Shown: positions 2,905-14,504 of the stretch, one piece after another | How the letters are laid out: each line of letters opens with the position of its first letter | Numbering within the stretch: position 1 is the first letter of the stretch | From: a virus | Length of the DNA: 64,000 bases | IMG/VR virus record: IMGVR_UViG_3300020162_002681 | Span: 1-64,000 of that record | Strand: one strand, 5' to 3' | Made by a program: the position numbers and the translations under genes | The notes under the pieces: generated by a model | Told to the model about the DNA's origin: nothing | The model's database searches: none | Seen by the model: the letters and a program-made list of their open reading frames with translations, nothing else

Positions 2905-4058
2905 TTGTCTCGGAGACGAGGAAGTGTATGGTGAAGTAGTTGAGGGCTGGACTCTTGTGAGATTGGTTCGACCTACCAACTACAAATCTCCTGAAGGTTT
3001 CTCTAGTTGCCATCAACACTCTGCAAAATTGCACAACGATGTGTATATGTTTTGGAATGATTGGGGTTTGACACGAAGCAATGACCCAGATTTTATTTTT
3101 AGCTGTGACCCGTTACCTAAAACTAGTCGCTCGAAGAAACAACTGCAACGCTTCCAGCACTATAGAGAACGCTTGACAGGTGATGTAGAAATTGGGTATA
3201 GTTTGATGGCTGCTTGCCTGAAAGCTGGCTACAACCCCAAGAAATTGCGTCTTGCAGAATGGTTAATGGATAGAATGTATCAGCATCTGAAAAACTTGGA
3301 TTGGAAACCTATTAAAGTAAGATGAAAAACAATAACTACCGACGCTACCGAACGTCATTTAATCCTTGGGGTAAACACCAGAAGCCTGAAGGAAAACGTG
3401 GGGGTCACAAGCTCAAACGGTTAGCTTGGAAAGAAGAGATTGCTATGCTTGTGGAAGAGAATCGACTCGGCAAAGTTAATAGTGTCGAAGATTTAGTGCT
3501 TGTTCTTGTAAAGGCTGGCTATAAAGTCAGTAAAACTAAAAAAGACTGGCACTATCGTTTTGAAAATGACGTAGTTTTTGGACTATTCGGTGACGACCCT
3601 GACGACCCGATGGCTCCATACACTGAAAACAAAATTTGTGCAGCAATCGCCCTTACTTTTGACAAATGGAGTACTGCCGAACTTCTCGATTTGGAGTTTT
3701 TAGGCAAAGACGCTGAAGTGGTGTTGATGGCATTGAAAGAACTTGAACACAGTGATTGGAGTAACCCATGATTGATAACTTAGAAGCCACTTTTGAAAAA
3801 TACAACGAAGACTATTTGAAATTCGATGCGATTATCGGTGAGCCTCTCCATCGAAGACGAGACATTGCTGCTTTTTTGCTCCTAGACCAACTAGTGCCGA
3901 ATGGTGACTATCCAATGGTGTCCGATGCCTCTCACGATAAGATTTGGCTTGATGTAGACTGCGATAAACTCGCTCACGCTGCCACAGAACAAGATATTTT
4001 ATATCTGGTACGTTGCGGTATACGTTATGTTGATGATTGTTTGGGGATGTTCACATGA
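2882..4058 (+). CDS. Three coupled hypothetical proteins (2882-3325, 3322-3771, 3768-4058)
   Basis: Overlapping stop/start junctions; no recognisable motif. Confidence 0.7.
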
Positions 4059-11470: not shown

Positions 11471-11900
11471 ATGAACAAAACACTATTTAACAAAATCCAA
11501 GAACGCTACCTCGCTAAGATTGCAGAAAAGAATAGCTGGGGCAAGAATGAAATCAAGCAATTGTGGCAAGCTACTGTATCTGAAGTGTTGGTGGAGAATT
11601 TGACCGATGAATGATACTATCGATAAAATCTCTTCACTCATGATAAAAGAAGAATATGCTTGGAAAGACGCACAGATAATAAAAACTGCTGAATCTACTG
11701 GCATTATGGTTATGGATGAGCTAACTAAGCTTGGTTGGAGTTTTGTACTACAACGAGATGCTAGTACTGGTCAAAACGTGTTGATGTGGGGCAGAGTTGA
11801 TTCTGAGCAGAACTTTATCGAGGAGTCGCGCTTCGAGTCGAAGGTAAAGCAGGAGTTTGAGGCTATTTGTAAAGAGGCTGTGAGGCTACCACTAAGTTAA
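11471..11900 (+). CDS. Two small hypothetical proteins (11471-11614, 11607-11900)
   Basis: Coupled ORFs. Confidence 0.6.
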
Positions 11901-12553
11901 TGGATTTAAGAAATTTTGAAGTTGATTTTGATTCTATAGACTCCCTTAACAGGTTGAGGAATAAGCTAAAAACTAGATTGTGCGAACTAACAGGTAAGGA
12001 AAATAAAAGCAGAAGAGAAACTAAAGCAGAGTACGAAACTAGAAGACGCACTTGTTTTGAAGCATATTTTAGTATTCTAGATACAGACATTACACATCTA
12101 TACAGTGATATTTCTGTGTCACTAGACCCCGAACCTAAATACTATGTCTATGCTCATTTAGATACTAGCAAACCTATTGTAGATGCGAAGAAAGCTAGAA
12201 TAGCTATAACATTTGCAGCCACTTTTGGTATGCAATTTCATCCATTCTATATAGGTAAAGGGGTGGGTGATAGGGCTTACGAGTTATCACGAAACGAAAC
12301 CCATAAAAAAGTTCGAGATAGATGTAAGAAATCTGGTAAAGATATTACTCCAATAATACTAAAAGACTCTCTTAGCGAACTAGATGCTTTAGCTTATGAA
12401 GCAAAACTGATGGATATTTTTGGTTCTATTGCTTGTAATGGCTTGTTAGTCAATATCGATGATGGTCATAGGTCTAGAGAAAGGAAGCAACTTTACAAGA
12501 AACATTTAGAGTGTATAAATAGCATAAATACATACCTACTTAAAGACGTATAG
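11900..12553 (+). CDS. GIY-YIG (LEM-3-like) endonuclease, probable free-standing homing endonuclease
   Basis: YYVYAH...PFYIGKG..DRA, ALAYEAKLM and LVN motifs; AT-rich codon usage. Confidence 0.75.
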   Translation: MDLRNFEVDFDSIDSLNRLRNKLKTRLCELTGKENKSRRETKAEYETRRRTCFEAYFSILDTDITHLYSDISVSLDPEPKYYVYAHLDTSKPIVDAKKARIAITFAATFGMQFHPFYIGKGVGDRAYELSRNETHKKVRDRCKKSGKDITPIILKDSLSELDALAYEAKLMDIFGSIACNGLLVNIDDGHRSRERKQLYKKHLECINSINTYLLKDV

Positions 12554-12584
12554 TAAATACCAATTTTTGTGTTAATATAAAAAA

Positions 12585-12800
12585 GTCACTGAGATTGCTA
12601 GATAACTAGGCTGGATGGGTAGCATAAATCCAATCCTCCACCAATCTAGGGGGATGCCGCAAGGACGTTTCGACAGGTTAGTGATTCTAGCAACACGCTG
12701 GAGTTTTATGAATGAAAGCTAGGCGACACAAAAACAAATGCCAATAACAACATCGTTAAATTTGCCCGTAAGTCTGCCCTTGTAGCTGTTGCAGTTTAAC
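12585..12800 (+). ncRNA. ssrA: Circularly permuted (two-piece) tmRNA
   Basis: 3' acceptor strand ATCCTCC-A-CCA (12633-12643) precedes 5' strand GGGGGAT (12649-12655), giving G3.U70. TTTCGAC follows; TTGCTAGA/TCTAGCAA helix; tag ORF 12740-12799 reads ANNNIVKFARKSALVAVAV*; TG-T-TAATAT promoter at 12570-12578. Confidence 0.9.
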
Positions 12801-12806
12801 CAACCG

Positions 12807-12840
12807 AAGACCTCGTATACTTAACGGTTGCGGGGTCTTC
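12807..12840 (+). terminator. Hairpin ending the tmRNA transcript
   Basis: GAAGACCTCG/CGGGGTCTTC inverted repeat. Confidence 0.65.
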
Positions 12841-12864
12841 CTATATCCAAGGAGTACAAAACAG

Positions 12865-13568: not shown

Positions 13569-14504
13569 ATGTCTTCAATTAAATTAGTTGCATCAGTTGC
13601 ATCTCGCCAACAAAAGCCTCTCAAGTGCCTCATATCTGCCCCCACAGGAGGAGGTAAAACTCTTGGCGCTCTGCTTATTGCTAAAGGTATCACCAATGGC
13701 GGTAAAGTCCTTGCTCTTGACACCGAAAATCGTCGCATGGATTTGAAAGTGGGCGAACCTCTTCTTGACGGTTGGCTTTGGGACAGAGTACCTTTGTCTC
13801 CTGATGAAGTTACTTCGCATCATTACATTGCGATGATTGAGAAAGCTATCGAAGAAGGCTACGAAGCACTTATTCTCGACTCAACTACTCATGAGTGGCA
13901 ATGGATTCTTGCTCAATGGAGCGCTCTTGGTGGTAAATGGGGTGTTCAGTGGGATAAGGCTTCTCGCCCTCACTTCGACTTCGTTAAAGCAATCATTAAA
14001 GCGCCTATCCATATCATCTGTACAGCTAGAGCTAAGATGACTACCGAGCAGCAAACAAACGAATCTACTGGCAAGAAGGAAGTCGTTAAGCTAGGACTAT
14101 CCAATCAACAAGAAGGCAACTTCGAGTATGACATGGACTTCCACTTTAGAATCGGCGGCACAGACAACTACGCAGTCGCAGAAAAGCAAGAAGCGGGACT
14201 TTTTGACGGTGCGTTCAAACTATCCACTGAAACTGGCATTCGACTCAATTCTTTTCTGTCTCAGGGTGAAACTCCTGCCGAAGCTAAGCGTCGCGAACAA
14301 CGCTCTAGATTGAACGAGTTGCAAATGAAGCTCATCGGACTTAAGTTGCTTGACAAAACTCAGGCAGAAAAAGAAATGGCTGAGGTGTTGTCTAAGCCTA
14401 GCGAAGAAGTGATTGCTTATGGTAAAGCTCTTCGCGCCAAGTACGACAAGGCTATTGCTGATGAGACTGCTAAAAGCGGTACTGCTTCCGAAGTGGCTGA
14501 GTAA
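13569..14504 (+). CDS. AAA_24 / Sak4-like recombination ATPase
   Basis: Walker A APTGGGKT, LDTEN, Walker B LILDS-x-THEW, HIICTARAK, FEYDMD. Confidence 0.85.
   Translation: MSSIKLVASVASRQQKPLKCLISAPTGGGKTLGALLIAKGITNGGKVLALDTENRRMDLKVGEPLLDGWLWDRVPLSPDEVTSHHYIAMIEKAIEEGYEALILDSTTHEWQWILAQWSALGGKWGVQWDKASRPHFDFVKAIIKAPIHIICTARAKMTTEQQTNESTGKKEVVKLGLSNQQEGNFEYDMDFHFRIGGTDNYAVAEKQEAGLFDGAFKLSTETGIRLNSFLSQGETPAEAKRREQRSRLNELQMKLIGLKLLDKTQAEKEMAEVLSKPSEEVIAYGKALRAKYDKAIADETAKSGTASEVAE

Follow-up and report, generated by a model that had tools for sequence, protein, structure and literature searches.

What does a 311-nt gap between plus-strand open reading frames (ORFs) of IMG/VR virus record IMGVR_UViG_3300020162_002681 encode, and is its product functional? 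The stretch analysed here, hereafter the window, comprises the first 64 kb of this complete 146,232-bp record with direct terminal repeats, and the gap is occupied by a phage-encoded, circularly permuted transfer-messenger RNA (tmRNA) gene with an intact alanine determinant, at 12585–12840 on the plus strand. The gene is identified from a direct reading of the sequence, the Rfam model RF04321, ARAGORN and covariation. The region around the locus is 95% identical to Pseudanabaena phage Pam2 (ON014754), a siphophage originating from Lake Chaohu; phage PA-SR01 (MT234670) is a more distant relative. Judged from sequence comparison, there is roughly a three in four probability that this Pam2-like Pseudanabaena siphophage has a working two-piece tmRNA gene at the locus.

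No tmRNA has been reported from these relatives. The Pam2 genome was screened with ARAGORN, with four tRNAs and zero tmRNAs reported (PMC9382816), and the GenBank records of Pam2 and PA-SR01 have nothing annotated beneath the tmRNA match. The family considered here has six members: the window, Pam2 (L001), PA-SR01 (L002, with the gene read on the reverse strand of MT234670) and the IMG/VR contigs L004, L005 (IMGVR_UViG_3300008121_000001) and L007. The three contigs, together with a fragment, L098, were found by pattern scans of IMG/VR. A scan with a 19-mer from the D loop recovered only L007 and L098 from IMG/VR and four chance matches in GC-rich DNA from the metagenome, and a 3'-hairpin pattern scan of metagenome and genome contigs returned zero matches. 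Covariation was assessed across seven sequences, the six family members and Synechococcus phage S-CRM01.

A permuted tRNA-like domain and its covarying helices

Within the single gene, the 3' half of the tRNA-like domain (12616–12643) lies upstream of the 5' half (12649–12655), which is the permuted order. The acceptor-stem 3' strand, ATCCTCC (12633–12639), is followed by ACCA (12640–12643), which comprises the discriminator A and an encoded CCA. The 5-nt segment ATCTA (12644–12648) then separates the two halves, and GGGGGAT (12649–12655, with G3 at 12651) supplies the acceptor-stem 5' strand. This arrangement, in which the CCA-bearing strand precedes the GGGGGAT strand with only ATCTA between them, had been described in a first-pass annotation made from the sequence alone; it is read directly here, and ARAGORN run at 85% thresholds places the borders at 12643 and 12649. 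The two strands form a 7-bp acceptor stem whose pairs include G1-C72, G2-C71, G3.U70 and G4-C69, with A73 as the discriminator. The G3.U70 pair, which the annotation had called intact, is invariant in all seven compared sequences. Further downstream, GTTTCGAC at 12667–12674 is a hallmark of the tmRNA 5' region.

Comparisons of the seven sequences provide evidence for the structure. First, the acceptor stem is fully paired in every one, with two to four pair types at positions 4–7: GGGGGAT/ATCCTCC in the window and Pam2 is matched by GGGGGTT/AACCTCC in L007, GGGCTAT/ATAGTCC in L004, GGGCGGG/CCCGTCC in L005 and GGGGCAA/TTGCTCC in PA-SR01. Second, the T stem is likewise fully paired across the seven and shows several pair types (TGGGT/ATCCA in the window and Pam2, TGGGG/CCCCG in L007, TTGGG/CCCAA in L004, GTTGG/CCAAC in L005 and GAGGG/CCCTC in PA-SR01). 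Third, the outer P2 strand of the acceptor piece, TTGCTAGA (12595–12602), pairs with TCTAGCAA (12686–12693) in the coding piece, and the relatives show compensatory changes: the helix reads TTTTAAGA/TCTTAAGA in L007, a difference of three double changes, TTCTAGG/CCTAGAA in L004 and GGTCTAG/CTAGACC in PA-SR01. The inner P2 strand ACTAGGCTG (12605–12613) pairs with CAGGTTAGT (12674–12682) in a by-eye reading of the window and L007. The helices covary across the permuted junction, and the structure is therefore real and under selection.

The same comparison bears on whether the locus could instead be an attachment-site remnant, in which case integration or excision would have left pieces of a host tmRNA gene in the phage genome. 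tmRNA genes often serve as sites of integration, and their 3' ends are frequently found in phages (PMC9004378). Here, however, both halves are present and permuted, they covary with one another, a promoter-like element is conserved with them, and no searched cellular genome matches the DNA beyond the tag. Moreover, lysogeny-associated genes were found only in Pam1 and Pam5, not in Pam2 (PMC9382816). Covariation between the two halves contradicts such a remnant, which we regard as very improbable.

Downstream of P2, a small hairpin at 12696–12725 (AGTTTT/AAAGCT with the loop ATGAATG, enclosed by an outer CGCT/GGCG helix) occupies the usual position of pseudoknot PK1. Its fold is insignificant alone (z = -0.5); the inner stem sequence is kept in all six family members, and the outer helix is GCCT/AGGC in L007. 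The tag frame (12740–12799), as called by ARAGORN at the 85% threshold, begins at the resume codon GCC (12740), runs for 19 codons that encode ANNNIVKFARKSALVAVAV and ends at the stop codon TAA (12797–12799). An Ala resume codon, an open tag of 17–19 codons and a stop are present in 6/6 members, and the resume context, AAAT followed by GCN, is common to the window, its relatives and one-piece cyanobacterial tmRNAs. The tag core NIVKFARK is of the Nostocales one-piece type. A likeness to the Nostoc tag ANNIVKFARK had been noted in the first-pass annotation, and the genome searches bear it out: the ANNIVKFARK motif occurs in 76 genomes, mostly Nostocales, and the three genomes that were checked all carry the NIVKFARK motif on one-piece genes.

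The gene had been thought to end right after the tag, at ~215 nt. A conserved hairpin at 12806–12840 follows the tag, however, and the RNA therefore extends past it. In this hairpin GAAGACCTCG (12806–12815) pairs with CGGGGTCTTC (12831–12840) around the 15-nt loop TATACTTAACGGTTG. The stem is 10 bp long by comparison and 12 bp in the minimum free energy (MFE) fold (-20.6 kcal/mol, z = -4.5), and the hairpin is the best-conserved block in all six members, with pair-preserving changes only in the relatives. A U tract is absent and a terminator scan found nothing at this position, so that the hairpin does not qualify as an intrinsic terminator. The mature size comes to ~253 nt, compared with ~390 nt for one-piece cyanobacterial tmRNAs. 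The earlier statement that most pseudoknots are missing agrees with our analysis, in which none could be shown and the PK1 position holds the small hairpin. Several candidate interactions were rejected. A pseudoknot between CAACCG (12802–12807) and CGGTTG in the hairpin loop has uncompensated mismatches in L004, L005 and Pam2; the pairing of the acceptor piece's 5' region with the tag end, seen in an MFE cofold, has no counterpart in L007; and the likeness of outer P2 (TCTAGCAA/TTGCTAG) to a PK3 helix of one-piece cyanobacterial tmRNAs is no greater than expected by chance and does not fit the topology.

Upstream of the gene lies a promoter-like extended -10 element, TGTTAATAT (12570–12578), recognised from the conserved TGnTAnTAT spacing; the same motif stands at equal upstream distance in L004, L005, L007 and PA-SR01. 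From this element, transcription is predicted to start near 12585. A consensus promoter scan found no -35/-10 pair at the locus. The sister genes, all of them permuted, have the motif AGTTTTATGAA, the extended -10 element and the 3' hairpin in common, and AGUUUUAUGAA is a further motif of the family. When window positions 12566–12848 are compared with L007 (minus strand, ~895–1180), the gene and the extended -10 motif are 70–85% identical, and the sequences on either side are no more alike than unrelated DNA. Gene and promoter-like element thus form a conserved island whose neighbourhoods differ in related phages. In the window the gene lies upstream of a same-strand DNA-metabolism module that encodes a Sak4-like annealing protein, a dUTPase and an exonuclease, and the 217-aa ORF upstream of it (11900–12553) has no Pfam match. 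The ORF upstream of the L007 gene ends in a motif that resembles that of an HNH endonuclease.

A divergent elbow and tag end, and their bearing on function

Several observations weigh against a functional tmRNA. First, default ARAGORN and the Rfam gathering cut-offs do not find the window gene, and its score on RF04321 (tmRNA_permuted), 21.5 bits, is far below the gathering cut-off of 47. Second, a PK1 pseudoknot could not be demonstrated at the window locus. Third, the tag ends in -VAVAV instead of the usual -AA. Fourth, the T loop lacks the TΨC-consensus U54-U55 and the D loop carries an insertion, and because of these two changes the binding of SmpB and EF-Tu could be impaired.

The detector scores can be set beside searches at relaxed thresholds; a check with ARAGORN and the Rfam permuted models had been proposed for this locus. 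Default and gathering levels give no call, and both ARAGORN at 85% and RF04321 in E-value mode support a permuted tmRNA. ARAGORN at 85% thresholds reports a permuted tmRNA (tmRNAp*) with a 3' domain at 12604–12643, a 5' domain from 12649 and the same tag. The RF04321 match is a full-length alignment over 12582–12799, with an E-value of 0.02 in a 501-nt search and 0.0014 over the whole 146-kb phage genome. The relatives score 26–44 bits on RF04321, and default ARAGORN calls a permuted tmRNA in L004. Standard detectors and the published annotations of relatives miss the gene because its tRNA-like elbow and tag end are unusual.

The elbow diverges in both of its loops. According to the Rfam alignment and covariation, the T arm consists of a 5-bp stem and a 7-nt loop (UGGGU/AGCAUAA/AUCCA in the RNA), with TGGGT at 12616–12620, AGCATAA at 12621–12627 and ATCCA at 12628–12632. 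The first-pass annotation was right that TTCRA is absent, but the TGGAT/ATCCA stem with an 11-nt loop that it had drawn is refuted by the alignment and by covariation in L007, whose partner strand CCCCG cannot pair with TGGAT and fits only TGGGG/AGCATTA/CCCCG. The loop AGCAUAA departs from the consensus UUCRANY, of which only C56 and R57 fit; A54 and U58 are the reverse of the canonical U54-A58, and a G stands at 55. The window, Pam2 and L007 have the T loop AGCATWA, and the loops of L004, L005 and PA-SR01 are canonical. The D-loop analogue follows the same division. The enlarged form, GCCGCAAGGACGTTTCGA within 12649–12673, is common to the window, Pam2 and L007 as GCCGCAAGGACGUUUCGA and is ~6 nt longer than usual, and the other three members are canonical. 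In the MFE fold the enlarged loop may contain a CC-GCAA-GG mini-hairpin; this element is invariant in the three phages that carry it, and covariation is therefore no test of it.

A T loop of similar kind was seen elsewhere. On a 4.9-kb contig of a cyanobacterial metagenome-assembled genome, a compact permuted tmRNA (L119; G453:C345:2734-2885, minus strand) scores 62.9 bits on RF04321 and receives no ARAGORN call. Its T loop, AUCGUAC, has A54 and U58 like that of the window, its ACCA is followed by a 6-nt spacer, and its tag is ANNIVRFARVAVAA. This gene may be phage-derived, and A54/U58 T loops may recur.

Could the window gene be a decaying or repurposed copy, either a relic dead in trans-translation or a decoy that binds SmpB, alanyl-tRNA synthetase (AlaRS) or ribosomes against the host tmRNA? 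The T loop outside the TΨC consensus, the enlarged D-loop analogue, the sub-threshold detector scores and the unusual tag end would all suit such a copy, and a passage of PMC11915505 cites a report that the tmRNA of mycobacteriophage DS6A, which has no coding sequence, inhibits the endogenous tmRNA in E. coli. Decay is nevertheless difficult to reconcile with variant T and D loops that are unchanged in the window, Pam2 and L007 while the adjacent stems compensate, or with tags that have diverged to 53% nucleotide identity yet remain open, Ala-initiated and hydrophobic at the C terminus. The G3.U70 pair, A73 and the resume context are also intact. On balance, a decayed or decoy copy seems unlikely.

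For a functional two-piece tmRNA, we infer the following course of transcription, processing, charging and tagging from the observed anatomy, covarying helices and conservation. A single precursor would extend from ~12585 to at least 12840 and would fold by pairing 12633–12639 with 12649–12655 in the acceptor stem and 12595–12613 with 12674–12693 in P2. Host RNase P would cut 5' of G12649, and exonucleases would trim the 5-nt trailer AUCUA back to the encoded CCA at 12643, removing the intervening segment during maturation. Two RNAs joined by base pairing would result: an acceptor RNA of ~59 nt (12585–12643), which would begin at the predicted transcript start and finish with the encoded CCA, and a coding RNA of ~192 nt. 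In relatives whose genes do not encode CCA, maturation would have to proceed by cleavage after A73 and addition of CCA. Host AlaRS would charge the molecule through G3.U70 and A73, and host SmpB and EF-Tu would bring it to ribosomes that have stalled; no SmpB is encoded in the phage genome, and that of the host would therefore be needed. Translation would resume at GCC 12740, add ANNNIVKFARKSALVAVAV and stop at UAA 12797.

The likely benefit would be an extra or altered capacity for ribosome rescue during infection. Rescue may be maintained in this way when host RNA synthesis falls, or the gene may help the phage to cope with RNA-cleaving defences; the host of Pam2 carries a type III CRISPR system, some of whose spacers are directed at this phage (PMC9382816). 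The altered tag end may also permit tagging without degradation. The tags end in -VAVAV in the window, Pam2 and L004 and in -VAA in L005, L007 and PA-SR01. A more speculative extension, which we consider rather doubtful, is that the RNAs of the window, Pam2 and L007, with their re-engineered elbow, remain substrates for charging by host AlaRS and for delivery by host SmpB and EF-Tu, that the -VAVAV tag perhaps goes unread by host proteases, and that the family is a phage-only tmRNA lineage in which recombination exchanges tRNA-like and mRNA-like modules. If true, this would provide the phage with ribosome rescue without proteolysis.

Origin of the permuted gene

Two-piece tmRNAs occur in Alphaproteobacteria, some Betaproteobacteria and Cyanobacteria, and permutation is a rare event, described from three main bacterial clades (PMC11915505). 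Phages also carry them: in a survey by Buchholz et al. (2022; PMC9004378), 53 of 133 unique phage tmRNAs were two-piece, mostly from aquatic phages, and Synechococcus phages S-CRM01 and S-SSM7 are listed as permuted in its Table S1. Did the window gene come from such a lineage, or was a tmRNA gene permuted anew?

S-CRM01 (HQ615693, ~88.3–88.6 kb) offers a close comparison, being called permuted by default ARAGORN and scoring 82.5 bits on RF04321 and 74.3 bits on RF01851. Like the window gene, its tmRNA is phage-borne and compact, places the acceptor piece before the coding piece and has a very short spacer (6 nt, against 5 nt in the window). PK2–PK4 are undemonstrable in both, a hairpin follows the tag, and GAGAUU precedes the outer P2 strand. 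The S-CRM01 tag, ANNVVKFRRTAVTSLVAAL, is of the cyanobacterial type (ANNVVKF...) like that of the window, but ends in -LVAAL. It differs from the window gene in that its T loop (UUCGACU) is canonical and its D loop normal; it also lacks an encoded CCA, passes the Rfam cut-offs and sits in the tRNA cluster of a T4-like myophage.

Cellular two-piece genes (RF01851, merged RF04321) share with the window the gene order, tRNA-like domain, P2 linkage, tag type and terminal hairpin. They differ in scoring 111–146 bits on RF04321 rather than 21.5, in having a canonical T loop and a 5' hairpin in the acceptor piece, in their P2 and PK1 sequences, and in tags that end in -VAA. Permuted tmRNAs above the cut-off are present in 14 of 151 sampled cyanobacterial genomes: nine small genomes with picocyanobacterial tags, four genomes of 4.2–5.1 Mb and the single L119 contig. 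The genes of the four larger genomes (L115–L118 in G412, G484, G426 and G507) read CATCTCC-ACCA, 4–5 nt, GGGGATG, and thus combine an encoded CCA with a short spacer as the window does; their tag is ATNNVVPF[A/V]RARATVAA, and their PK1 region is near-identical to that of picocyanobacterial genes. The 5-nt spacer, encoded CCA and small size of the window gene are therefore features of a known kind, because S-CRM01 and cellular genes have such traits. One small, picocyanobacterium-like genome carries a second compact permuted tmRNA beside its normal copy (L120; G227:C1:926965-927111, minus strand), which scores 61.6 bits, has the 5-nt spacer TTTAC and the tag ANNIKRTERTLAIAA, and is not called by ARAGORN; it may lie in a prophage or genomic island.

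One-piece tmRNAs of Nostocales and other filamentous cyanobacteria resemble the window gene in their NIVKFARK core and in the resume context of AAAU followed by GCN, but they have the standard gene order and four pseudoknot regions at ~390 nt. The first-pass annotation had favoured an independent permutation and minimisation in a phage lineage, in which a functional two-piece tmRNA arose from a one-piece, Nostoc-like or host-like gene. In favour of such an origin, the one-piece tmRNAs of filamentous cyanobacteria are those that the tag and resume context most resemble, a BLAST search of 401 cyanobacterial genomes found matches in the tag region only, and beyond the tRNA-like domain and tag the gene has little sequence in common with any cellular gene. 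The P2 and post-P2 sequences have no clear similarity to RF01851 members, the family lacks the RF01851 5' hairpin and differs in its P2 and PK1 sequences, and no RF01851 match to the window copy was listed in a search at E ≤ 10.

The relatives and the known two-piece genes speak otherwise. The best tmRNA-clan match of both L004 and PA-SR01 is RF01851, the cyanobacterial two-piece model; in L004 it is full length, at 37.1 bits (cut-off 70) and an E-value of 3.7e-7. The element order, 3' hairpin, short spacer and mostly non-encoded CCA of the family are as in S-CRM01 and picocyanobacterial genes. The sequence CTGAAG after P2 is common to L004, L005 and cellular two-piece genes. Given also the rarity of permutation, a separate event within the phage lineage appears improbable, and the gene most likely descends from, or was exchanged with, a cyanobacterial or cyanophage two-piece lineage, as far as these sequence comparisons indicate.

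A mosaic family of phage tmRNA genes

Within the six-member family, parts of the gene have different histories of similarity. L004 and Pam2 (L004:100–400 against Pam2 3040–3302) are 92% identical over 160 nt of the mRNA-like half and have an identical tag, AKNQIVKFARKSTPVAVAV; between their tRNA-like halves there is no sequence relationship. L005 and PA-SR01, whose tRNA-like halves differ, have in common a second type of tag, AKNNICQFSRKAA[L/P]VAA. These patterns suggest a mosaic family with recombination inside the tmRNA gene. Only the window and Pam2 encode CCA, and L004, L005, L007 and PA-SR01 do not.

Two members carry additional sequence at unusual positions. In L005 (13665–13757), the spacer of ~78 nt between CCCGTCC-A and GGGCGGG holds a whole tRNA-Trp (anticodon CCA; ARAGORN 13676–13749, 47.2 bits on the Rfam tRNA model) with an encoded CCA and two acceptor-stem mismatches. 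The tmRNA around it is missed by default ARAGORN and scores 41.2 bits on RF04321. In PA-SR01 (2705–2956), the T arm is split between GAGGG-TTCGAT (2705–2715) and T-CCCTC (2943–2948) by a 227-nt intron-like insert. The exon end GTTCGAT pairs with GTCGAAC (2733–2739), with a U.G pair at the junction, and the 3' end of the insert is G. Such splice-junction features are hallmarks of group I introns, to judge from the sequence, and the insert has no match to the Rfam Intron_gpI model. The form table of the 2025 tmRNA catalogue has no combined intron-plus-permuted category.

Phage two-piece tmRNAs were already known from the 2022 survey, so that the existence of such a gene is in itself no novelty. 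The novel features are a non-canonical T loop combined with an enlarged D loop, the -VAVAV tag end, and the occurrence of the gene in a Pseudanabaena phage group (Pam2, PA-SR01 and relatives) from which no tmRNA had been reported. Divergent phage tmRNAs fall below default detector thresholds, and surveys therefore under-count them. The six-gene family represents a natural experiment in which a canonical elbow can be compared with a remodelled one, encoded with non-encoded CCA, and -VAA with -VAVAV tag ends, and which also includes a tRNA nested in the spacer and an intron-like insert in the T loop. Thus, this family is useful for studying the minimal requirements of a tmRNA and the reasons for its presence in phages.

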